Positions 47,252 through 58,587 of a stretch of DNA of 64,000 nt are shown piece after piece. The stretch spans positions 1,275 through 65,274 of the forward strand of contig JAFXDF010000036.1 in the NCBI GenBank assembly GCA_017521295.1, given 5' to 3'. Origin of the DNA: Clostridia bacterium. Lineage in GTDB: Bacteria; Bacillota; Clostridia; Oscillospirales; Butyricicoccaceae. The translations under genes were made by a program, and so were the position numbers. Each line of letters begins with the position of its first letter. Within the stretch, counting starts at the first letter, position 1. The notes under the pieces are model-generated. The model searched no databases. It was not told the DNA's origin and saw nothing but the letters and a program-made list of their open reading frames with translations.

Positions 47252-47941
47252 ATGACATATACAGAAGTGCAAGCGATTGCTAAGAAAACTATGGAGTACA
47301 CTCGTAAGATCATCCGACCCGGAATGCACTTGACTGAGATACGCAAGTTGTGCGAGGATAAGCTGCGGGAGCTGGGTGCAGATTCGTTTTGGTACTGGGA
47401 TGTGGGCGCATTCGTCTTTGCTGGCTCTGAGACTACCATTTCAATCTCCGGTACGGAATATCAGACACCTGACCGCATCATTGGTATGAATGACATCATC
47501 ACCATCGATCTCAGTCCTCAGGTGAATAAGATCTGGGGTGATTATGCCAGGACTATCATTCTGGAAGATGGCTGCGTAGTAGATTCCACAGCAGACATTA
47601 TGAATCCGGAGTGGAAACGTGGGTTGGAAATGGAAGAGAGACTCCATGGAGAACTGTTCCGTTGCGCCCGACCAGATATGACCTTTGAAGAGTTGTATTT
47701 TCACATGAATGCGTTCATTGTTGAAAATGGATTTATCAATCTGGATTTTCTGGGTAATCTGGGCCACTCAATTGTCTACGAAAAGAAGGATCGAATTTAC
47801 ATCGAAAAGGGCAATCAACACAAGCTGGGGGACGTAGCCTACTTCACCTTTGAGCCGCATATCAGCGTGGCCGGGTCGAAATATGGCTACAAGAAAGAAG
47901 ACATTTACTTCTTCGAAAACGAGAAGTTGATTGTGCTATAA
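47252..47941 (+). CDS. M24-family metallopeptidase, catalytic (pita-bread) domain only
   Basis: 229 aa, Xaa-Pro aminopeptidase/creatinase-like. Candidate metal-ligand positions lie in IDLS, GHSI and FEPH. Confidence 0.65.
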   Translation: MTYTEVQAIAKKTMEYTRKIIRPGMHLTEIRKLCEDKLRELGADSFWYWDVGAFVFAGSETTISISGTEYQTPDRIIGMNDIITIDLSPQVNKIWGDYARTIILEDGCVVDSTADIMNPEWKRGLEMEERLHGELFRCARPDMTFEELYFHMNAFIVENGFINLDFLGNLGHSIVYEKKDRIYIEKGNQHKLGDVAYFTFEPHISVAGSKYGYKKEDIYFFENEKLIVL

Positions 47942-48203
47942 AACAAAGCCGCTGTCACAACTGACGGCGGCCTTTTCTGATATGTGGCAAAATTATTTGT
48001 AAATACACTGTAAATAACGTATTTGTCAAGCTAAATGGTGTATGAAAATGCAAAATTATTCTTGTGCGTTTTGTGGATTGATTGCTCCTGAAATACAAGA
48101 TATAGTGGTAATTAGAAGGAAACATATACCATCTGCGATGCGTTTTAAACCATGCAGCATGATGTTTCTTCCGAATTCACTACATTGATATCTGGAGGAA
48201 TAC

Positions 48204-48857
48204 ATGAAAGGTTTTGTCAGAAAGTACAAGCGCGAAGTAATCGTGGGAGTTGTTGTATCTCTTATCACGGCTGCAATTATCAAACTGGGGGATTGGATCA
48301 TTACGGTGACTCCTGCGTTTGGACAGACGCTTGTCAGCACAATACAAAATATTATTTATATGACGGCAGCTGCACAGACGGCAACGACTGTCGATAGACT
48401 TCTTTTTGGAAGCTTATCAGGATTATTTATGGGTAGTTTTCTGGCATTGATCGGCATGGGATTCAAAGAATGGTTTCGTGCATTAAAACTTGAGCGTATG
48501 ATAAATAAACGTTCTACAGCAACAGGGCATCGTGAACGAAAGCCAGAGAAGCCAGCAAGCAAAGAAAGTGAATCAGCGGTAAAAAACTTGATAGCAGAAG
48601 CAAAGCGCCTTGGTTATAAGGCTATTGGGCTAACTGCTTTGCTGGTAGTTATTTACCTGTTTTCCCAAATAACAATTGTGAAACCTGCACAGTTGTGGTC
48701 TATCTTCCAAAATGATATGACTATGATTGCGCCCTATGTAGATAGCCATGAGCTTCTACACTTGAAATCAGAATGGGTGTGCATGCAAAGCAAGGAAGAT
48801 TATGTGACGCTTTATCAGTATATCGATGGCGTCAAGCAAACGAATAACTTGCCATAA
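48204..48857 (+). CDS. hypothetical membrane protein
   Basis: 217 aa, 3-4 predicted TM helices, no recognisable motif. Confidence 0.5.
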   Translation: MKGFVRKYKREVIVGVVVSLITAAIIKLGDWIITVTPAFGQTLVSTIQNIIYMTAAAQTATTVDRLLFGSLSGLFMGSFLALIGMGFKEWFRALKLERMINKRSTATGHRERKPEKPASKESESAVKNLIAEAKRLGYKAIGLTALLVVIYLFSQITIVKPAQLWSIFQNDMTMIAPYVDSHELLHLKSEWVCMQSKEDYVTLYQYIDGVKQTNNLP

Positions 48858-48877
48858 AAAACAAAGGAGGTGCCTAT

Positions 48878-49672
48878 ATGAACGACTTGGAAAATAAAAT
48901 GATTGAAGCGCTGGTTGATGTGGGGAAAGATGTAACAAGTGATCTGGTAAGGCCTACGTCCAAAAGCGTGGGCGATAACATTGGACGCCTTGTAGATGGA
49001 GTAATGGGTTGGCTTGGATACTGGGGCGAAAAGCAAAAGGTCAAACAAGCTGTGTATCTAGAGGATTATAAGAGGAAAATAACGGAAAAGATTCTTGGAA
49101 TCCCAGAGCAAAAACTAATTGAACCCCCTATACGCCTTGTTGGACCAGCGATTGAAGCAAGCAAGTTTTTTATTGAGGAAGAGTATTGCAGGGATATGTT
49201 TGCAAAATTGATTGCCTCGGCATGCGACTCTTCCAAGGTGAACTCGGTGCATCCTGCATTCCCAGAAATAATTAAACAGTTAACCCCTTTGGATGCGAGG
49301 TTTTTACAACTGTTTAAGGAGCGGAGCACCTATCCGGCAGTAGAATTGACAGCTGTGCATCCGGATGAAATAGTATCACCGTTTCCTCATATGCTGTTCG
49401 ACTTCAAGGATAGCAATGCATCCTTCAACGCTGGTGAGCAGTTAGAATTGACAAAAACAATAGAAAACCTAATTCGATTCGGGCTCTTGATCAAGAATAC
49501 AGCGGTGCTTGAACTCAACTATAATTATGATAGTTTTAAGAACCACTGGTTCTATAAAGGCATTACCCCGACGCTTGATGAAGGCAGTAAATTACGGATC
49601 ACCAAATATCGAGTTGAACTCACATTGCTGGGACAGGACTTTCTGAAAACTTGCTTGCCCGAACAGGAGTGA
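48878..49672 (+). CDS. Abi-alpha (DUF4393) family protein
   Basis: 264 aa with family-typical stretches FAKLIASACD....VHPAFPEIIKQLTPLDARFLQL. GGAGGT RBS. Confidence 0.6.
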   Translation: MNDLENKMIEALVDVGKDVTSDLVRPTSKSVGDNIGRLVDGVMGWLGYWGEKQKVKQAVYLEDYKRKITEKILGIPEQKLIEPPIRLVGPAIEASKFFIEEEYCRDMFAKLIASACDSSKVNSVHPAFPEIIKQLTPLDARFLQLFKERSTYPAVELTAVHPDEIVSPFPHMLFDFKDSNASFNAGEQLELTKTIENLIRFGLLIKNTAVLELNYNYDSFKNHWFYKGITPTLDEGSKLRITKYRVELTLLGQDFLKTCLPEQE

Positions 49673-49709
49673 GGACATTTTTGTTTCCAGCTTGTTTACA
49701 AATGCAATA

Positions 49710-49738
49710 TTGACACCAGAACAAATGTTTGGTATCAT
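49710..49738 (+). promoter_or_regulatory. near-consensus sigma-A promoter with extended -10
   Basis: TTGACA (49710-49715), 17-nt spacer, TGgTATCAT (49730-49738). Confidence 0.55.
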
Positions 49739-49744
49739 GTAATT

Positions 49745-50075
49745 GTCCAAGCGGACAGACAACTTCATACATAGCTTAGGTCAAGTACGTGCCCTGGAGC
49801 CGCTTATTTCAACGTGATAGATAAGCGCTGACTTCCTACGTGCCGCTTGATACAGCTGTCGAGTACGAGCCCACCGGAGCGGGCGTTGCCAACAACGTCA
49901 ATGACTCCACCGAGCCGCTTGATGTTAGATCCTTTATCTGAAAGCAGTCAGATAAGGTTTTCTCATTGCGGCCAACGCCAGGGACCAGCTCAATACTCTT
50001 CCCAGTGACCGTAACCGGACATTGAGAGCCACAGGATCTGACATCCTGATGGCCCTGATGTCCGGTTTTTATTTT
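49745..50075 (+). ncRNA. candidate ~330-nt structured RNA (unclassified), or the first segment of a long leader
   Basis: Begins at the promoter above and ends at a hairpin plus T-run. No RBS-preceded ORF. Several stems (49801-49827, 49931-49957) and GCCGCTTGAT twice (49842, 49914). Confidence 0.3.
50015..50075 (+). terminator. compound hairpin plus T-run
   Basis: CCGGACAT (50015-50022) pairs with ATGTCCGG (50058-50065). Inner CAGGAT-CTGAC-ATCCTG stem. Followed by TTTTTATTTT. Confidence 0.5.
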
Positions 50076-50429
50076 CGCAAAAAGGGCTTTGCGACCATGA
50101 AGCGAACCGCTCCGTGCATTGGATAACTTCATAAAACTCCACCGAATAACGACCTCTCTGTATGATCGGGAAACCGATGAGCCAGGTCGGAGGGGGCGCC
50201 AAGACTCCGTTACGCAGGCGACGGACGAGCGACAACCACCAACTCCGAGCAATCCGGACAGTTCCCGGAGGCGGCGACGACAGCAGAGAGCAGAGACTCC
50301 CCACTAGCCACAGTCCGAGCGTGATAACAACCGTCGCAGGCAATGGGGTGAGAGGCTTCGTAAGTCAATCGGAGATTGCAAAATGAGCGCCGACCAACTA
50401 TCGGCGGTTCGATGGAGAAAACCTTACGA

Positions 50430-50458
50430 AGACTTCCAAGGGAGAAGTCTATCTTTTT
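50430..50458 (+). promoter_or_regulatory. attenuator-like hairpin plus T-run just upstream of the rep-like gene RBS
   Basis: AGACTTC-CAAGGGA-GAAGTCT followed by ATCTTTTTA. AGGAGG at 50484-50489. Confidence 0.35.
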
Positions 50459-50498
50459 ATCAAAAATTCTATGGAAGAAAACCAGGAGGACAAATCTA

Positions 50499-52244
50499 TT
50501 GACCAAATTACAAGAAAACATTTACGCACCCAACTACAAAGTGGAAGATGGCTGTCTGGTGGAAGTGCGCAGCAATCGCCAAGGGCCGTATGACCAAAAG
50601 TTGTGCAATTTTTTGCCCTGGCTGGTCAGCGAAATCGCGGTGGACAACGGTATGGAAAAGACTACTCGAATCGTGCTCTCCGGTGTTCATGCTGACGGTC
50701 ACACCCTGCCTGAAGTGGAGATCCCCGCCTCGGAGTTCGCCGGTTTCGGCTGGCTGTTCAAATACTGGGGCATGGACTGCAATCTGGAAACAGCTCACGG
50801 CGTAAAAGACAGTCTGCGGTACGCCATCCAGAGTACCGCACCCAACGCTGAGCATCGATCGGTGTATGAAGTCACCGGCTGGCATGATGATAACGGAAGC
50901 TGGCAGTTCCTGATGCCGGGGGATGACGCGCAGTCCGTTGTGCTTCCCAGCAATATGAAAGGCTATCACATGGAGCACCGGTGTGATGAAGCAGATATCG
51001 CCTCGGCACTGGCGCTAATGGAAGCAGATCTGGCGCCTGCTGAAATCATCTGGCCCATGCTGGCCTTCACCTTTCTCTCTCCGCTGAATCATTTTCTTCG
51101 GCTGGCTGGATGTGAGCCAAAGTTTGTACTGTTTCTGGTAGGAAAAACCGGAAGTCGCAAAAGTACATTAGCAGCATTGTTCCTTTCCTTCTTCGGAATG
51201 TTTAATGGAGCAAATCTGCCGCTGTCCTTCCGCGATACTGCCAACAGTGTCCTGCATCATACGTTTACCTTGAAAGACGTACTTACTTGCATCGACGACT
51301 TTCATCCTACCGGCCGAAAGGAAACCACAAGTATGAATGCCATGGCGCAGGCTATCATGCGTGCCTACGGTGATCGCACCGGCAGAGGCCGTCTGCGCGC
51401 CGATGCATCACCTATGGAATCGCTGCCGCCCCAAGGCAATGCCATCATCACTGCCGAGTTCCCGCCGGACATTGGTGAAAGCGGAACCGCCCGCTATTTT
51501 GCGCTGGAGCTGATGGAAGGCGATGTGGATCTGGAAGTGCTGACAGCCTTTCAAAAGCAGGCCGAGAGCGGCGTGCTCCAGCGATGTATGTACGGCTATC
51601 TGGAATGGCTGAAAGAAACCTATCTCTGGAATGTGGATGGTTTCCTTGCTGATTTGAAAACACAGTTCGAATATTGGCGGGACATCTTCCGCCAACAGTG
51701 TCCCAACTGCCATGGGCGTGTGCCGGAAGCGGTGGCATGGCTGGTGATCGGAATGCGCTATCTGTTGTCTTATCTGCAAGACCAGTTGGAATTGGCAGAA
51801 GCGGAGTGTGAAAGTTACCGTCAGCGATTCTACTCCATTCTGAAAATGCTGGCAGAGCGACAGGCATCCAACATCGTGCAGGACAAGCCTACCCATAAGT
51901 TTTTGCAGAAGCTGTACGCACTGTTGGAGAGCGGGCAGAACTGTCTGCTGCCGCGGCACGCAGTACATGAGTATCTGCCGCCCAACTGTCTTGGCTATGA
52001 AGATGATACTTACCTCTATCTGTTCAGCGAGATTGCGCTGGAGGCCGTACAGGAGTTGTGTGACAGGCAGGGTGAGGCATTCAACATCAAAAACAAGGAG
52101 TTGCTGAAACAGTTAGCACAGGAAGGTGTGCTGGAGCCTGCAGGTAAGCAGAACACCAAGTCCATCCGCTTTGATGGTAAGAGCAAGCGGGTGGCCTGTT
52201 TATATAAAAGGAGGACCGAGCAGATCCGTGATCTGGCTTCGTAA
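50499..52244 (+). CDS. P-loop NTPase of the DUF927 / SF3-helicase (primase-helicase) type, putative element replication protein
   Basis: Walker A GKTGSRKST and Walker B LTCIDDF. Preferred start is TTG at 50499, 9 nt after AGGAGG. Alternative in-frame starts exist at 50412 and 50376. Confidence 0.55.
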   Translation: MTKLQENIYAPNYKVEDGCLVEVRSNRQGPYDQKLCNFLPWLVSEIAVDNGMEKTTRIVLSGVHADGHTLPEVEIPASEFAGFGWLFKYWGMDCNLETAHGVKDSLRYAIQSTAPNAEHRSVYEVTGWHDDNGSWQFLMPGDDAQSVVLPSNMKGYHMEHRCDEADIASALALMEADLAPAEIIWPMLAFTFLSPLNHFLRLAGCEPKFVLFLVGKTGSRKSTLAALFLSFFGMFNGANLPLSFRDTANSVLHHTFTLKDVLTCIDDFHPTGRKETTSMNAMAQAIMRAYGDRTGRGRLRADASPMESLPPQGNAIITAEFPPDIGESGTARYFALELMEGDVDLEVLTAFQKQAESGVLQRCMYGYLEWLKETYLWNVDGFLADLKTQFEYWRDIFRQQCPNCHGRVPEAVAWLVIGMRYLLSYLQDQLELAEAECESYRQRFYSILKMLAERQASNIVQDKPTHKFLQKLYALLESGQNCLLPRHAVHEYLPPNCLGYEDDTYLYLFSEIALEAVQELCDRQGEAFNIKNKELLKQLAQEGVLEPAGKQNTKSIRFDGKSKRVACLYKRRTEQIRDLAS

Positions 52245-52383
52245 AACCATGTGTGGCGGGTGTGGTAACGGCGCAAAATAGGCGATTTGTGGCGGCAAAG
52301 TGTCCTGCGGGAATGTGCTCGAAACCCTTGCAAACAGCGGAACACGGGCGGTTTTTGCGCCAACGACAGCGGCCTGTGTGCCT

Positions 52384-52476
52384 GCATCTGCTGTGCGTCT
52401 GCAATGCCGCTTTTGTGCATCTGATCGGGCATCTGCAAACCCCTTGCAACGACTGCACTTTTGCCCTCTGCATCTG
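52384..52476. repeat. iteron-like cluster of GCATCTG motifs
   Basis: GCATCTG at 52384, 52417, 52429 and 52470, plus the variant GCGTCTG at 52395. TGCATCTGAT occurs twice. Confidence 0.4.
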
Positions 52477-52655
52477 ATGCCACACGTAAAGCACAGTGGA
52501 TTACCCCTTTGGGGGTGACAAGTTTCGCCTTTGTGGTACGGAATCGGGGCGATTGCCCCGTTCCGCCCACTTTGGCAGTTGCGGGCTAAGCCCACACCCC
52601 TACAAGCTGCGTGCACTTCTGCTGAAGTGCAAAAACCGCCTGCGGCTTCGCAGCT

Positions 52656-52679
52656 TCAAAGGGGGACCAGTCCCCCTTT
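52656..52679. repeat. perfect 10-bp inverted repeat (oriT hairpin candidate) upstream of mobC
   Basis: CAAAGGGGGA-CCAG-TCCCCCTTTG. Confidence 0.4.
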
Positions 52680-52737
52680 GAGGAACCCCCAGCTCTCCGA
52701 GGGGATAAAAATATTTTAATGAAATGGAGGAAACAAA

Positions 52738-53049
52738 ATGGCAAAAGATAATTTCATCCGTCTGCGTGTTGCAGGCTGGGAGAAAGACTACATCCAGCAC
52801 AAAGCAGCAAGTGCAGATATGACACTCTCTGAGTTCGTCCGCAGGGCGGCGATGCATCAGAAAGTAAACGTACTCAGTGGCACTGACGAAGAAGTGTTGC
52901 AGGAGCTTCGACGCCAGGGCAACAATTTAAATCAGCTGACCGTCATGGCGCGGCAGGGTCGTATTCAGTTCGTCAACTTCGAACCCTTCATGGAGGTGTA
53001 TGAAAAAACATGGCAAGCGTTAAATTCGTCGGTGTCTCGTGTAGTCTGA
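52738..53049 (+). CDS. mobC: MobC-family relaxosome accessory protein
   Basis: 103 aa with motif IRLRV...E...I...A....MTLSEFVRRAA and NLNQL. Confidence 0.8.
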   Translation: MAKDNFIRLRVAGWEKDYIQHKAASADMTLSEFVRRAAMHQKVNVLSGTDEEVLQELRRQGNNLNQLTVMARQGRIQFVNFEPFMEVYEKTWQALNSSVSRVV

Positions 53050-53987
53050 AAGACATCATGGACTACATCACCAACCGTGAGAAAACAACTGACAGCCTTG
53101 TCACCGGTGTCAATTGTGTAGCCCAGTCTGCGCTTTATGAATTTGAAACGGTGAAAAAGAAGTTCCACAAAACCGACGGACGCAGCTACTACCATATCGT
53201 GCAGGCGTTCTCACCTGATGATAAATTGGATTTCGACACCGCCCATGAGATCGGGCTGAAGTTCGCTCAGCAGTTCGGTGGTTACCAGTGTCTGGTAGCC
53301 ACCCACATGAATACCAAGCACATCCACAACCACATTGTGATGAACTCGGTGAACTACGAAACCGGCAAAAAGTTTCACCAGACTGCGCGGGAACTCAAGC
53401 AGGTGAAAGACTATTCCAACGAACTCTGTATGCAGTACGGATTGTCCGTTACGGAATCCAAAGCCGACCCGTTCCGCATTCCCACATGGAAGAAAAAACT
53501 GCAAAAGGATATTCGCCAAGCCATGGAAAACTCTCGAACGAAAAAGGAGTTCATCGAATACATGGAATGGTTCGGCTATGGCGTGGACTGGCAGAGCGAT
53601 ACCAAGTACATCACCTATACTACGCCCAACAATCTCAAATGCCGTGATAAAAAGCTGTTTGACCAGACGCTTCGTCGGGAGAACATGGAACTCTACTTCG
53701 CCATGGGTGGCTGCGCATATCTGGAAAGCCGTGAAGAGGCGACACCTTATGGTGAACAGCTCCCCACGGTGGATGACGCTGTCAGCGGTCTGGTTGCCAT
53801 CTTCGATGCACTGGCTGTCGGTGACAACAACCGTTTCCATATGGAGACCGTCCATCACAGCGAAGAAGAGATCGAGCGCATCCTACGCCACGGCGGTAAG
53901 ATCGACCGCACAGTCGAATACGCCGTCGATGATGAGGATGAAGAATATCAACAGTACCATGGCTTCGGCATGACCATGATGATGTGA
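53010..53987 (+). CDS. relaxase/mobilization nuclease (MobA/VirD2 family)
   Basis: 325 aa. YYHIVQAFSP and the histidine triad HMNTKHIHNHIVMNSV. Overlaps the end of mobC. Confidence 0.8.
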   Translation: MASVKFVGVSCSLKDIMDYITNREKTTDSLVTGVNCVAQSALYEFETVKKKFHKTDGRSYYHIVQAFSPDDKLDFDTAHEIGLKFAQQFGGYQCLVATHMNTKHIHNHIVMNSVNYETGKKFHQTARELKQVKDYSNELCMQYGLSVTESKADPFRIPTWKKKLQKDIRQAMENSRTKKEFIEYMEWFGYGVDWQSDTKYITYTTPNNLKCRDKKLFDQTLRRENMELYFAMGGCAYLESREEATPYGEQLPTVDDAVSGLVAIFDALAVGDNNRFHMETVHHSEEEIERILRHGGKIDRTVEYAVDDEDEEYQQYHGFGMTMMM

Positions 53988-53999
53988 GAAAGGAGAACA

Positions 54000-55166
54000 A
54001 TGGCAAGTATCAAAACCATCCATGAACGCAAATACAAAATCACCGTCAGCAACGGATACCATGCTGACGGCAGAAAGATCAGTCGGGCAAAAACCATCAC
54101 GGTCCCCGACCATGTACGCGAAAAAAGCATTCCCCAGTATGTGGCTCATGCTGCGGAAGAGTTTGAACGGGAAGTGAAACTGGGATACTCGGAGGACGGC
54201 GAGTTATCATTTGAAGAATATGCTGAGCGCTGGCTGGCGCGGCAGACCAAATATGCGCCCAGTACACTGGCCAGTTATCGGCGGATGCTGGCGCAGACCT
54301 ATCCTCATATCGGACAGATCAAGCTCAACCGCCTGCGACCCATCGCTCTGGAGAATATGCTGATGGAGTTGCGCAAGCGCACCCATCATGGCAAAACGGT
54401 GCAGGAAGCCACCGTGCAGAAATATCTGACGGTGGTCTCCGCCGTCCTTAGTGATGCCAAACGCAACGAGATCATTCAGAAGAACCCTGCCCGCATGATC
54501 GACCTGCCCGCAACCGAAAAGGCCAATCAGCAGATCCCGACGCCCGAAGAAGCCAAGCGGCTGCTTGAGATCCTGACCAATGAACCCGAGGAATATAAAC
54601 TATTCTATGCACTGGCCATTTACACCGGCTGCCGCCGTGGAGAACTGTGCGCCCTCCGCTGGTCGGACTTCACCTGCATTGGCTATGACGGCATTCTGAC
54701 CGTACAGCATTCTCGCAGCTCTGTTTTGGGACAGGGAATTGCGGAGGGTACTACAAAAAATGGGAAGGCACGCACAATCTATTTGTATGACGATATGATG
54801 AGTCTGCTCCGCGGCTACGGTCATTACAAACTGGAAGAAGCAAAACAGAACAAGCACCGGTTCAGTGAGTACCTGTTTGTCAACACCGACGGTACGCATA
54901 TGCATCCCGACACCTTCACCAAGCGCCTGCGTAAAATCTATGACCACAACGGATTCTCCAAACGTTTTCACCTGCACACCCTGCGGCATTATTTTGTCTC
55001 CACCATGCTGCATAGCGGCGTAGACAAACAGACGGTAGCGGATCTGGCCGGTCACGGCGACACTTCTTTTCTGGAACGCACCTACTGTCATCCGCAGATG
55101 GCACTCAAAGAGCAGGCCGCGAAAAAGATGTTTTCGTCCATGTTGGAAGAAGCTATCACAGGATAA
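54000..55166 (+). CDS. tyrosine-type site-specific integrase 1
   Basis: 388 aa. RRGELCALRW, HTLRHYF, and the LAGH...Y catalytic motifs. Confidence 0.85.
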   Translation: MASIKTIHERKYKITVSNGYHADGRKISRAKTITVPDHVREKSIPQYVAHAAEEFEREVKLGYSEDGELSFEEYAERWLARQTKYAPSTLASYRRMLAQTYPHIGQIKLNRLRPIALENMLMELRKRTHHGKTVQEATVQKYLTVVSAVLSDAKRNEIIQKNPARMIDLPATEKANQQIPTPEEAKRLLEILTNEPEEYKLFYALAIYTGCRRGELCALRWSDFTCIGYDGILTVQHSRSSVLGQGIAEGTTKNGKARTIYLYDDMMSLLRGYGHYKLEEAKQNKHRFSEYLFVNTDGTHMHPDTFTKRLRKIYDHNGFSKRFHLHTLRHYFVSTMLHSGVDKQTVADLAGHGDTSFLERTYCHPQMALKEQAAKKMFSSMLEEAITG

Positions 55167-55289: not shown

Positions 55290-56465
55290 ATGGCAAGTAT
55301 CCGAAAGCGTGGCGACAGCTATCTGATCATCGTATCCATGGGATATGACTACAATGGCAACCGCCGCAAAGCACAGCAGAAGACCGTCCATCCCCCAGCA
55401 TCGCTGACACCCAAGCAGAAAGAAAAATGGCTGAACGAACAGGCAGTCCTGTTCGAAATGGCCTGCAAGAAAGCAGGTCAGCAGGTCAACACAGGCATTA
55501 CACTGGCACAGTATATCGAACTTTGGCTGCAAGAGGTCGCACCCAACAAACTGGCCAAATCCACCATCACCCGTGAAAAGCAGGACATCGCACGCATCCT
55601 GCCTCATCTGGGAAACAGCAAACTCACCAAACTCCGCCCCGAGCACTTCCGAAAGCTGTATGCCGATTTGCGGAAAGAAAAGAATACGGTAACGGGAAAG
55701 CCGCTCTCCGAAAACACCGTTGCGGGAGTCCACGCATGTCTGTGCGGGATCCTCAGCGATGCTATGGAGGGCGGCTTTCTGGATCACAACCCCGCATGGC
55801 GTACCTATCGCTACACAGGAAAGAAAAAGGATAAAATCATTACCGATGAAGATACGGTGCAGAAACTGGTCACGGCGCTGGAACAGGAAAGCATCAAGTA
55901 TGAAACCTACTTCAAACTGGTGATTGCTACGGGCATGCGGCGGGGCGAGTGCTGTGGCCTAAAATGGTCGGATGTCGACTGGCAGGAACGGAGTATCCAC
56001 ATCCAGCGTAATGTGGTAAAAGTCACCGGCGAGGACATCATCGTAAAAGACACCAAGACCTCATCGGGCGACCGATACGTATACTTCTCTGCTGAGATGG
56101 AGAGCCTTCTACGGGAGTATCGACGGGAGTGCGAATGGGAAACCGAAGCCCACGACGAGCGAAGCCTGGCCGAAGATGATTATGTATTCCGTCGTCATGG
56201 ACAGCCATTACCCATGACACCCACCACCTTCACATGGCGCTTCAAACTGATTCTGAAGAAGCATGGCCTGCCTGAAAAGCTGAATGTGCATTCACTGCGA
56301 CATACCAACGCCAGCCTGCTGATTGCCAACGGCACCGATGTGGCAACAGTGGCTGGCCTGTTGGGACACTCGCAGCCGTCCACCACACTGGATATCTACA
56401 CCCACGCCTTCGATAAGAACAAAAAGGCTGCAAGCGCAGCGCTGCATGATGGACTGGAGATTTGA
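55290..56465 (+). CDS. tyrosine-type site-specific integrase 2
   Basis: 391 aa. RRGECCGLKW, HSLRHT, and LLGHS....IYTH. Confidence 0.85.
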   Translation: MASIRKRGDSYLIIVSMGYDYNGNRRKAQQKTVHPPASLTPKQKEKWLNEQAVLFEMACKKAGQQVNTGITLAQYIELWLQEVAPNKLAKSTITREKQDIARILPHLGNSKLTKLRPEHFRKLYADLRKEKNTVTGKPLSENTVAGVHACLCGILSDAMEGGFLDHNPAWRTYRYTGKKKDKIITDEDTVQKLVTALEQESIKYETYFKLVIATGMRRGECCGLKWSDVDWQERSIHIQRNVVKVTGEDIIVKDTKTSSGDRYVYFSAEMESLLREYRRECEWETEAHDERSLAEDDYVFRRHGQPLPMTPTTFTWRFKLILKKHGLPEKLNVHSLRHTNASLLIANGTDVATVAGLLGHSQPSTTLDIYTHAFDKNKKAASAALHDGLEI

Positions 56466-56534
56466 GTGTTGACAAATCCAGGCATGGAACATAGAATTAT
56501 ACTTACCAACATAATATAGAAAGAGGGTGATGCA

Positions 56535-56690
56535 ATGACCGACTACACCACGCTTGCACACGCATTCGAACTTGCAGGACATGTCGTGGGTATTTTCGCA
56601 CTGATGCAAAGATGCAAAGGAGAAGCCGGCATTGCTTCCGAAGCGCCGCAACGCATTGCATTGACTGGAATGGCCAACCAGCCTTTCTGA
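56535..56690 (+). CDS. small hypothetical ORF (51 aa)
   Basis: ATG after an AGAGGGTGA RBS-like sequence, followed by the terminator at 56725-56753. No recognisable motif. Confidence 0.25.
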   Translation: MTDYTTLAHAFELAGHVVGIFALMQRCKGEAGIASEAPQRIALTGMANQPF

Positions 56691-56724
56691 ATATTGTTGG
56701 CAGAGACACAGTCTCTTTAGCCGG

Positions 56725-56753
56725 GACGCGCTCTATTTGAGCGCGTCTTTGTT
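56725..56753 (+). terminator. intrinsic terminator
   Basis: GACGCGCTC-TATTT-GAGCGCGTC followed by TTTGTT. Confidence 0.5.
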
Positions 56754-56880
56754 CGTAGTTGACTCATTCAAGCGGTTGCGTAAGGCATCACATTTTTTGC
56801 AAAATAACGAGCAATTGGCTCTAACAATATACCGCAGCTAAAACAAATAGAACGCTGGCACAGTCATCTGTACCAGCGCT

Positions 56881-57246
56881 CTATTTGTTTTCATCCTTCG
56901 ATGCTTCTGTCGTTTCAGTCTCATTATTTTTCTGTTTCGTAGTTGCTATGTTATCTTTAGAAGATTCATTTAACAAGTTTTTCAAGGAATCACACACTTT
57001 AGTAAAATACTTAGCAATTGGCTCAAGCAGAATACCGCTTAGATATTGAGCTTGGGGAACAAATTCTGCAGCGAAGTTAATTGTTAGAGCAATTACGCCA
57101 TAACCCAGAAGTAAATATAATACTTTCGTAACACCTTTCCAAAAAACCTGCTTATTGAATCCCTCTTTCCAGGTGCCATATCCAGTTCCAATTATTTGAT
57201 TAACCACCATTAAGGCTATTAAGACACCGATCAACTTAAAACTCAT
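56881..57246 (-). CDS. holin-like small membrane protein
   Basis: 121 aa with 3 TM helices and a charged, polar C-terminal tail. AT-rich. Confidence 0.4.
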   Translation of the reverse strand: MSFKLIGVLIALMVVNQIIGTGYGTWKEGFNKQVFWKGVTKVLYLLLGYGVIALTINFAAEFVPQAQYLSGILLEPIAKYFTKVCDSLKNLLNESSKDNIATTKQKNNETETTEASKDENK

Positions 57247-57435
57247 AGACTATGAAACACCTCCTCTCTTTGGGATGGCTATTTTATATGGCATTATTAT
57301 AAAACTTTTCTATGTATAATGCAAATGGATTGTCAAGTTACCTAAATCAATAAAAACCACCAAAAACATTTCGTTTCTGGTGGTTTTAGGTGCATCTATC
57401 TAGTTAAACCAGCAATTTTTAGCGCCGGAGAATTA

Positions 57436-58041
57436 TTACAGTTCTTCAGCCTTGAAAGTGGTATAACCCTCATAATAGTAGCTGTGGTCGATGCCTTTCA
57501 TATACATTTCACGGCTGTTGATTTCATCGGTAAGCGCATTTTTCAGGATATGCTTGATCTCTGTATCACGGATCGGGCTGCGTTCCATGGCCAGAAGATA
57601 GTCCTCTTTATCCACACGGCTCCAGTCGATCACTTGATGCAGCTCGGCTTTCAACATCAGATCCAACCAGATGCGGGTGCTGCGTCCGTTGCCTTCGCGG
57701 AAAGGGTGAGCCACGTTCATCTCGACGTACTTTTCGATGATTTCATCGAACGTGGACTGTGGCATTTTTTCAATGTTTGCAAGTGCCGCTTCCAAATACA
57801 TCACCGAAGCAAAGCGGAAGTTTCCTTTGGCCATGTTAACGGTACGAAGTTCACCGGCAAAGTCGTAAATATCCTCAAAGAGGTATTTATGGATGAATTG
57901 CAGAGACGAGAAGGTTCCGGCCTCCAACTCATTCAGGATACCCTTCTCAAAAAGCTCGACAGCCTTCTTTTTGCTGATTTTCTCTTCTTCACGGGCGAGA
58001 GCGGTGGAGGATGTGATTCCCAATTTATTCTCAATTGTCAT
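57436..58041 (-). CDS. fic: class III Fic-family protein (adenylyltransferase type)
   Basis: Start at MTIENK (AGGAGG RBS). Fic motif HPFREGNGRSTR. C-terminal inhibitory-helix motif S-Y-Y-Y-E-G. Confidence 0.85.
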   Translation of the reverse strand: MTIENKLGITSSTALAREEEKISKKKAVELFEKGILNELEAGTFSSLQFIHKYLFEDIYDFAGELRTVNMAKGNFRFASVMYLEAALANIEKMPQSTFDEIIEKYVEMNVAHPFREGNGRSTRIWLDLMLKAELHQVIDWSRVDKEDYLLAMERSPIRDTEIKHILKNALTDEINSREMYMKGIDHSYYYEGYTTFKAEEL

Positions 58042-58061
58042 GGAAAAACCTCCTTTATCTG

Positions 58062-58100
58062 AATGAAAACAAAAGGCACTTGCTTTCGCAAGTGCCTTTT
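58062..58100 (-). terminator. intrinsic terminator after the element-borne tRNA-Arg
   Basis: AAAAGGCACTTGC-GAAA-GCAAGTGCCTTTT followed by GTTTTC on the minus strand. Confidence 0.6.
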
Positions 58101-58102
58101 GT

Positions 58103-58179
58103 TGGTACGCCCGACTGGAGTCGAACCAGCGGCCTACAGAGTCGGAGTCTGTCACTCTATCCAACTGAGCTACGGGCGC
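58103..58179 (-). tRNA. tRNA-Arg (anticodon CCG), intact, element-borne
   Basis: Hand-folded 77-nt cloverleaf: GCGCCCG-TA-GCTC..GAGT-G-ACAGA-CTCCGAC-TCTGT-AGGCC-GCTGG-TTCGACT-CCAGT-CGGGCGT-A-CCA. Confidence 0.85.
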
Positions 58180-58206
58180 GTATTCACTTGCGGGAAAACT
58201 GCTTCG

Positions 58207-58231
58207 AAAAAATAGTGGTCAAATAGTAGTC
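58207..58231. repeat. arm-type-like repeat near attR (AAAAAATAGTGGTCAAATAGTAGTC)
   Basis: 23/25 identical to 35019-35043. Confidence 0.6.
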
Positions 58232-58319
58232 AACTACTACGCTGTTCTGGAGTGTCACCGGCGGCAACACCAGTGATTGCAAGGCTTTGCGGAATAGCTC
58301 TACCGGATAGGCCTGAAAC

Positions 58320-58358
58320 GTCGGAGTCTAACGCTCTATCCAACTGAGCTACGGGCGC
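58320..58358 (-). pseudogene. tRNA-Arg(CCG) 5' half (acceptor to anticodon loop), truncated by the element
   Basis: Minus-strand reading is GCGCCCGTAGCTCAGTTGGATAGAGCG-TTAGA-CTCCGAC. The sequence then diverges into non-tRNA sequence. Confidence 0.8.
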
Positions 58359-58587
58359 GTGCTTATTCAGAACGAATGAATTATAGCATAGATTTACAAT
58401 TTTGTAAATCCCTATTAAGGAAAAACCTTCGACAAACTGCGACGATCTCTCATTTGCATTTTCCGGAAAAATGATAAATCCAGCTTTTTAATGAAAAATA
58501 GCAAATTGTGGAAGAAATTCTTGATGTTGTCAAAAAATCATGGTAACTTTAACATATTCTTGAACAATTTGTGGAGGGATTTTCATC

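Follow-up and report, generated by a model that had tools for sequence, protein, structure and literature searches.

A putative two-module RNA control region ahead of a helicase-type replication gene in a mobilizable element of a Clostridia bacterium

What is the role of some 0.8 kb of DNA that encodes no protein and lies directly ahead of the replication gene of a mobile element? The interval in question belongs to a 64-kb stretch of a Clostridia bacterium genome (contig JAFXDF010000036.1; here called the window), where it separates an Abi_alpha gene (48878-49672) from a gene for a 581-amino-acid (aa) protein with a TTG start at 50499. A preliminary description, made from the letters alone, had proposed that this open reading frame (ORF)-free region holds a near-consensus promoter, a terminated RNA of ca. 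330 nt, and a structured leader with an attenuator before a rep-like gene. It offered two readings, a stand-alone structured RNA or a two-step attenuation leader comparable to those of pT181/pIP501-type plasmids. Here, we compared the region with other elements and genomes (numbered with an L, e.g., L096, L134, and L165). The best explanation, which we hold with about even confidence, is that it is transcribed and controls the core operon (in order, a rep helicase, NikA, a relaxase, and two integrases) of an integrative mobilizable element, and that it consists of two fused modules. In module 1 (49683-50075), a near-consensus sigma-A promoter is followed by a predicted RNA of ca. 330 nt that would end at a very strong terminator (T1); module 2 (50120-50410) is a variant form of the leader type that includes canT of Tn916 and the pemK RNAs. 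Features are on the plus strand unless otherwise stated, and all of those listed in the preliminary description were found where it had put them or within 1 nt.

A conserved non-coding unit with its own promoter and terminator

Relatives of module 1 were obtained through a protein-database search with a spurious ORF on its minus strand, and they amount to six distinct ones (L096/97, L162, L163, L164, L169, and L170). Within the 331-nt unit that runs from the predicted start to T1 (49745-50075), substitutions relative to these loci affect 1.2 to 3.9% of positions. The corresponding values for rep are 1.4 to 2.7% at first and second codon positions and 12.4 to 14.4% at third codon positions, and in the spacer directly after the unit (50076-50130) they reach 17 to 31%. 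Because divergence of the unit is far below that of rep third positions and of the adjacent spacer, module 1 is, by these rates, under strong purifying selection and hence functional. The poorly conserved spacer between the modules occurs as two haplotypes (window and L164 versus all others) and looks like a recombination patch.

The same relatives bear on the claim that the region holds no real ORF. They carry 1-nt indels (after 49908 and at ca. 50211) and insertions of 15 to 108 nt, and because these interrupt each of the long ORFs on either strand, none of those ORFs can be real. A protein-coding pattern in homologous elements, which would have made the window's copy a degraded gene, was not seen, and codon periodicity is absent. 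By this comparison, the ORF-free region is non-coding. Descent from a decayed coding gene, for example one of the orf7/orf8-type sigma genes that precede the leader in other elements, might be suspected given the long minus-strand ORFs (138 and 117 aa), which gene callers sometimes call. However, this origin is scarcely credible and we rejected it: relatives have frame-breaking indels, there is no similarity to orf7/orf8 proteins, and divergence lies below that of rep second codon positions, which is the opposite of decay.

The promoter (49710-49738) consists of TTGACA (49710-15), a 17-nt spacer, and TG-n-TATCAT. It matches 11 of the 12 consensus positions and has the TG extension in addition, and in a 3-kb scan (48500-51500) it was the top match, in line with the earlier claim. 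Its -35 box is invariant in seven variants and its -10 box reads TATCAT or TATTAT, while the spacer and flanking bases differ. The predicted product (49745-50075) is a non-coding RNA of ca. 330 nt that belongs to no known class and would end at T1, a compound hairpin followed by UUUUUAUUUU (50013-50075). At -32.8 kcal/mol (z -8.0), T1 was matched by none of 200 shuffles, and the proposed 330-nt unit with a strong terminator is borne out to this extent. Its stem is conserved; the window's C at 50055, where other variants have U, makes the sole A.C mismatch.

Upstream of T1 are the stem CGCTTAT/ATAAGCG (49801-07/49821-27), a stem with a 1-nt bulge (49931-41/49948-57; -10.9 kcal/mol, z -3.6), and the complementary segments GGCGTTG (at 49882) and CAACGCC (at 49973). 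The decamer GCCGCTTGAT occurs exactly twice in the 64 kb (49842-51 and 49914-23) and is invariant in 7/7 variants; together the two copies make an 18-nt repeat (83% identical), and a third, partial copy, GCCGCTT, is found at 49799. Alternative pairings of the decamers with CAAGCGG at the 5' end (49748) had been envisaged. The sequences are indeed present, but a 7-nt complementarity to CCGCTTG is expected by chance within 331 nt. The whole 331-nt stretch folds more stably than shuffles (z -4.75), mostly on account of the terminator, since the body alone reaches a modest z of -2.3.

An Rfam scan, as suggested in the preliminary description, came back empty: the Rfam 15 covariance models gave no match in the ORF-free region, either at the gathering threshold on the 64 kb or at E<=10 on 1.2 kb. 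No DNA homologue of module 1 was found in plasmid, phage, IMG/VR, or JGI metagenome collections, nor was one present beside 80 genome loci of rep relatives. BLAST of the ORF-free region against plasmids and phages found nothing beyond a 40-nt block of module 2. A pattern built on the decamer pair gave 34 matches in IMG/VR, all by chance, and a three-part pattern gave one chance match in the JGI metagenomes. As far as these collections reach, the first half is without known relatives outside the close relatives of the element. With its strong purifying selection, it may still fairly be called a stand-alone structured RNA of unknown class. More conserved than the adjacent coding gene, the 330-nt unit is a clean candidate for an RNA of a new kind that regulates the replication of a mobile element.

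A variant leader of the canT/pemK type

The second half, by comparison, has relatives. The pemK RNA motif, reportedly described by Weinberg and colleagues in 2017, is classed by Rfam (RF02913) as a cis-regulatory element; matches to it elsewhere (L001-L010, L033, and L134) score 36-60 bits, the gathering threshold being 34.8 bits. What we call the extended canT/pemK leader family was defined in this analysis from Tn916 and 10 other elements. A profile of these 11 elements, built without the window, finds module 2 with nhmmer at an E value of 4.2e-24 (79.6 bits), window 50120-50364 corresponding to model positions 3-237 of 287. By profile alignment, then, module 2 is homologous to the leader common to Tn916-like elements, the similarity reaching about 190 nt upstream of the 40-nt block. 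The parts shared by the family are, from 5' to 3', TTGACA followed after 17-18 nt by a GAATA-type box, a closing helix (P0), the boxes GCGCCAAGAC and GAGCGA, two covarying hairpins, the pemK junction, and a further hairpin. In other elements, these leaders follow orf7/orf8-type sigma and helix-turn-helix genes and precede PemK toxins, TnpW, large serine recombinases, or Xis-Int. A homologue of the window's rep, in L033, has a canonical pemK RNA (60.5 bits) at the same place as the window leader.

In the window, the 5' domain (50154-50290) is closed by P0, predicted to form between CUCUCUGU (50154-61) and GCAGAGAG (50283-90). Within it lie a GNRA hairpin, ATCGG-GAAA-CCGAT (50165-78), the box GCGCCAAGAC (50196-205), a hairpin (50206-10/50221-25), the box GAGCGA (50227-32), and a second hairpin (50253-57/50265-69). 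P0 occupies the same position with differing sequences in six lineages (the window, L001, L003, L005, L033, and L134), and the hairpins of the domain covary as well (50206-25; C-G in the window versus U-A in L165). The GNRA stem noted earlier is present, and like the other stems of the second half it belongs to a conserved leader; the earlier view that a structured leader precedes the replication gene also holds. The 5' domain of pemK/canT leaders (P0, the boxes, and the two variable hairpins) is not included in the Rfam model.

Downstream of this domain, the P1 stem CCCCA/UGGGG (50299-303/50344-48) encloses the 40-nt block CACAGUCCGAGCGUGAUAACAACCGUCGCAGGCAAUG, the whole spanning 50299-50348. 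In Tn916 and other elements (L001-L010), the P1 insertion of the pemK RNAs matches this block at 95-100% identity; BLAST found the block (50309-50347) at 95% identity in Clostridial element sequences, and many IMG/VR contigs contain it as the P1 loop insertion of pemK matches (36-60 bits). L162 and L164 have a 108-nt insertion with two strong hairpins inside this block, which otherwise hardly varies, after the base matching 50327, and L163 has one of 15 nt at the same site. Judging from the 108-nt inserts, the P1 loop tolerates large insertions. Three small hairpins follow (50354-66, 50367-77, and 50388-406). The first two stand in place of P2 and P3 of pemK; the third (-10.7 kcal/mol) corresponds to the further hairpin of the family. 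Folded as a whole, 50076-50498 is no more stable than shuffles (z +0.06).

The window form departs from pemK at the junction. P1 is present, but the P1-P2-P3 arrangement with the P3 loop GGUGAAAUUCC is not, its place being taken by two unrelated hairpins (50354-66 and 50367-77). The conserved 5' single strand of pemK, AUAAUGAUACUUC, is absent; the window has GCAGAGACUCCCC there, with a 4-nt gap in the profile alignment, and it reads GCAGAGACUCC where the leader family has AUAAUGAUACU. A 15-mer of the window-type junction has no true relatives in IMG/VR. Is this form simply decayed? L165-168 carry the same variant, with leaders that are about 92% identical (by eye, from the alignment), whereas rep is just 69% identical in DNA. 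Moreover, its hairpins show compensatory changes: 50367/77 is A-U in the window and G-C in L165, and 50393/50401 is A-U, G-U, or G-C across variants. Since it is shared with L165-168, is better conserved than rep, and changes in a compensatory manner, the window leader is, on this comparison, a conserved variant under purifying selection and not a product of decay.

What such a leader may do is suggested by Tn916, whose orf8-xis spacer contains canT, a 452-nt RNA that is a cis-acting, orientation-specific, processive antiterminator and acts without any other factor of the element (Wirachman & Grossman 2024, PMC11658703). L134 is 100% identical to Tn916, and canT and pemK can be laid over one another on its coordinates. 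The canT fragment (+126 to +577 after the orf8 stop) corresponds to L134:9502-9953, and the Rfam pemK match (L134:9659-9759, 55 bits) falls within it. The S3 mutation (AUA>UGC), which inactivates the 452-nt fragment (PMC11658703), changes ATA to TGC at +283; these are L134:9659-9661, the first three bases of the pemK model. Similarly, a 162-nt canT deletion (+229 to +390) takes out the whole pemK motif together with the 3' strand of P0. The coordinates of the canT paper and L134 also agree on orf5 (83 codons), on its A30 codon, and on its overlap with xis. This mapping places the Rfam pemK motif inside the essential part of canT. The canT paper mentions neither pemK nor Rfam, and we found no paper linking the two in the literature searched. 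The identification of pemK with canT is a by-product of this study that may be of wider use; if pemK lies in the essential part of canT, hundreds of RNA annotations that are now orphans would gain a function open to testing.

Like canT, module 2 is a non-coding leader of several hundred nucleotides in a mobile element of a Firmicute, is oriented with the operon that it precedes, and is associated with terminators insulating replication genes. It shares with canT the closing helix P0, the 5' domain with GCGCCAAGAC and GAGCGA, P1 with the 40-nt block, and the following hairpin. With pemK RNAs generally, it shares the 40-nt insertion in the P1 loop and its place as a leader in mobile elements of Clostridia and Bacilli. 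Unlike canT, it lacks the AUAAUGAUACU strand and the P2 and P3 hairpins, it precedes a SaPI-Rep-like helicase and relaxase operon instead of xis-int, no orf7/orf8 sigma genes accompany it, and its strong terminator lies upstream of the leader instead of downstream; antitermination by the window copy is a prediction from its sequence. Taken together, these comparisons show the second half to be a conserved canT/pemK variant that is new both in its form and in its setting. They would extend the canT type to small islands in gut Clostridia that are mobilizable and use a SaPI-Rep/Cch-like helicase for their replication. Furthermore, this variant lacks the segment that is sensitive to the AUA>UGC change, and comparing both forms could help define the minimal functional core.

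A terminator checkpoint, antitermination, and rival explanations

How might the two modules act together? The leader's own promoter is decayed. TTGGAT (50119-24) represents its ancestral -35 box and is followed, after 19 nt, by GAATAA (50144-49). In 7/7 carriers of module 1, the -35 box of the leader reads TTGGAT or TTGGAC with a 19-nt spacer, whereas relatives without module 1 have TTGACA, 17-18 nt, and then the -10 box. That the decay extends to all carriers suggests that the upstream promoter took over and that read-through of T1 feeds rep.

The best reading of the region, for which we see about an even chance, is a terminator checkpoint at T1 followed by antitermination of the canT type. 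The sigma-A promoter, presumably constitutive, would make the ca. 330-nt non-coding RNA, and most transcripts would stop at T1, yielding an abundant small RNA. T1 would thereby shield rep from its own promoter and from co-directional genes upstream, just as the terminator T1 of Tn916 insulates the replication genes of that element. Because the leader's own promoter is decayed in every module 1 lineage, rep expression would most likely depend on the fraction of polymerases that escape T1, which is what would make it a checkpoint. Once transcribed, the canT-like RNA would act in cis on its polymerase and render it resistant to terminators. Such a polymerase would pass a second hairpin, T2 (7 bp, followed by AUCUUUUUAU; 50430-50458), and run through the operon (rep, mob, and int). 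To our knowledge, RNA-only processive antitermination of the canT type has so far been demonstrated in Tn916 alone.

Several findings weigh against this combination of checkpoint and antitermination. The predicted fold of module 1 has 104 pairs and no double changes among the relatives (all of them at least 90% identical in DNA, at which covariation analysis is without power); of the seven substitutions in its stems, four are one-sided and wobble-neutral, which counts in favor of module 1, and three break pairs at helix ends. The secondary structure lacks covariation support, and the minus strand folds about as well as the plus strand (z -3.9 versus -4.75). No competing, antiterminator-like fold was found for T1, which moreover lies upstream of the canT-like RNA and so cannot be overcome by it. 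T2 is weak: its hairpin reaches -8.3 kcal/mol (z -1.3), a stability equaled by 23 of 200 shuffles. We also found no strong same-strand terminator inside the operon, and with T2 weak, the need for an antiterminator is not obvious. The window gives no match to RF02913, either at the gathering threshold or at E<=10 in 49500-50700. It is also without P2, P3, and AUAAUGAUA, the very segment in which the AUA>UGC change inactivates the canT fragment. The antitermination activity of the window variant may accordingly have been lost or altered.

Could a known type of leader control account for the region instead? A pT181/pIP501-type mechanism, in which a minus-strand countertranscript would force termination at T2 ahead of rep, is very unlikely. 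The window does resemble these plasmids in having a hairpin and T-run shortly before the ribosome-binding site of rep, and a promoter-like minus-strand site (TTGTCC-16 nt-TAGAAT, 50493-50466) with a hairpin and short T-run (50406-50388) might produce ca. 70 nt of antisense RNA over T2. However, this site, the sole candidate, matches just 9 of 12 positions, and about three such sites are expected by chance in 48500-51500; it also overlaps the ribosome-binding site, so its conservation is uninformative. The region is not conserved in L165, and folding of 50380-50500 disclosed no upstream competitor for the T2 stem such as a preemptor would provide. Finally, the window Rep is a helicase-type initiator and not a rolling-circle or theta Rep like those of the plasmids, and its leader belongs to another family, one homologous to canT, which needs no other factor of the element. 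Of the two-step attenuation leader proposed earlier, the terminator and the leader before rep hold, but the second half points to antitermination in cis and not to countertranscript attenuation; similarly, the second attenuator exists as a hairpin and T-run but is thermodynamically weak. The region also resembles the prgQ leader of pCF10 (Qs/QL, with the IRS1 terminator) and conAn of pLS20, termination-controlled leaders of conjugation operons in which a strong constitutive promoter yields a terminated leader of ca. 300-400 nt and read-through feeds the transfer or replication operon. This comparison draws in part on the canT paper. The window differs from both in having no identified antisense partner, peptide ORF, or protein antiterminator, and there is no sequence similarity. 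By analogy with Qs and QL, the whole region might be one long regulated leader, with module 1 as a sensor, either of the riboswitch kind or one to which a protein or tRNA binds, that determines whether T1 forms and the 330-nt RNA as its "off" product. We consider this unlikely. It would suit the decay of the internal promoter in all carriers of module 1, given which T1 read-through must feed rep, as well as the very strong purifying selection on the 267-nt body and a helix (49779-83/50007-11) that adjoins T1. On the other hand, T1 is extremely stable and no structure competing with its stem was found, the body is marginally structured, and no known riboswitch or T-box matches.

A further alternative gives the small RNA a task in trans. 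The segment UAAGGUUUUCUC (49953-49964) of module 1 is a perfect complement of GAGAAAACCUUA (site A, 50415-50426), just before T2, and its 8-nt core GGUUUUCU is also complementary to AGAAAACC (site B, 50476-83), which adjoins the Shine-Dalgarno sequence AGGAGG (50484-89) ahead of the TTG start (the whole spanning 50476-50501). Module 1 might thus be a trans-acting RNA that serves in immunity or in the control of copy number, with a loose parallel in the P4 CI and P1 c4 RNAs, and it would pair at both sites and lower rep; a strong promoter with a strong terminator is typical of an abundant small RNA. The 12-nt match has a P of 0.009 (2000 dinucleotide shuffles) and was equaled by 0 of 183 natural segments; corrected for the three target regions tried, P is ca. 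0.03. Yet half of UAAGGUUUUCUC is buried in the -10.9 kcal/mol hairpin (49931-57). Site A offers just 9 contiguous pairs in L163, L165, and L169, and is partly ancestral, L165 having it without module 1; site B is broken in L096 by an A-to-C change at 50480. We treat the pairing as a lead only, and a role in trans as doubtful. Alternatively, module 1 might act as DNA, in the form of a single-strand origin, arm-type recombinase sites, or a replication origin. The recurrence of 7-10-nt motifs (three copies of GCCGCTT and further ones in inverted orientation), the nearly equal folding of the minus strand, transfer of the element as single-stranded DNA, and the position of module 1 at a module boundary would all agree with this. 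Nevertheless, we find it highly improbable, as the unit opens with a conserved canonical promoter and closes with a hairpin and U-run, its G+C content is about 50% with no AT-rich unwinding region, and a search of the far end of the element for a matching repeat was negative. It is instead the rep-nikA spacer that has repeats resembling iterons, as well as an inverted repeat that would suit an origin of transfer (oriT).

We also entertain, as an improbable but consequential extension, that module 1 is the first example of a new class of regulatory RNAs encoded by such elements, has displaced the native promoter of a canT-type leader, and gates replication. It could do so as a sensor with control over T1, its very strong terminator, or, being abundant, by pairing with the leader at 50415-26 and 50476-83, and the low probability that we attach to this idea covers both modes jointly. 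If true, the element would have an RNA-only switch for immunity or copy control, placed on top of an antiterminator that likewise consists of RNA alone.

The replication gene and the surrounding element

The gene downstream of the region (50499-52244) deserves its earlier label of rep-like. The TTG start behind AGGAGG that had been preferred is backed by homologues of 580-584 aa at 98-100% coverage. Sequence searches with the 581-aa protein (Pfam, NCBIfam, PHROGs, and PDB sequences) were negative or sub-threshold, a weak DUF927 match being the only return. By contrast, a Foldseek search with its AlphaFold model (pLDDT 74) found the replication initiator-helicase of SaPIbov1 (8tch, E 2.4e-13) and the Cch helicase of SCCmec (5dgk, E 1.6e-11). 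According to this model, the product folds like the self-loading helicases SaPI Rep and SCCmec Cch, so that the leader stands before a genuine replication gene. Downstream are genes for NikA/MobC (52738-53049), a MobA-type relaxase (53010-53987), and two tyrosine integrases (54000-55166 and 55290-56465).

In the rep-nikA spacer (52245-52737), iteron-like repeats lie at 52383-52478, with three copies of TGCATCTG[A/C]T and two of GCRTCTGCAA, and a perfect 12-nt inverted repeat lies at 52656-52681. A SaPI-type origin and an oriT are expected in just this place. The repeats probably represent the origin of replication and oriT, and their position downstream of rep would place both outside the ORF-free region. 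Most rep homologues (L015, L021, L041, L062, L065, L073, L077, and others) have a conserved block, TTGCAATATGAATACTGCTCCCAC, 60-170 nt before the rep start. The block also occurs in L165 and L169, is followed by TTTT and a hairpin, and has been lost from the window. It resembles the 5' strand of pemK, and we considered it as a minimal pemK; this was dropped, as RF02913 fails to recognize it even at E<=5.

On the left, homology with L096/L097, L162, and L164 begins at 49681-49683. The onset of the conserved core at 49683 is sharp (its boundary segment, 49683-49709, leads up to the promoter), and the flanks beyond it are of three kinds among the window, L096/L162, and L164. The adjoining 47983-49682 is a swappable cargo slot, with a G+C content below that of the surrounding sequence; in the window it holds a 217-aa membrane protein gene and the Abi_alpha gene, in L162 an unrelated 264-aa gene on the opposite strand, and in L164 a third flank. 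Host genes to the left of the slot are common to the window and L162. No att-type direct repeats were found that would connect 47940-48040 or 49640-49720 to 56400-58400; an empty insertion site, sought through the Abi_alpha gene, returned only identical contigs. Short-read assemblies of the same element (L158-L160) break at 50166-50177.

Between the second integrase gene, which it adjoins, and a 51-aa ORF is a second near-consensus promoter (TTGACA-17 nt-TAGAAT, 56469-56497); a 20-bp hairpin follows at 56844-56887. Farther along, a 51-nt stretch of a tRNA-Arg(CCG) gene is repeated 179 nt away with 86% identity (58131-58181 and 58310-58360); no second tRNA is called there, and the repeat may be a remnant of an integration site.

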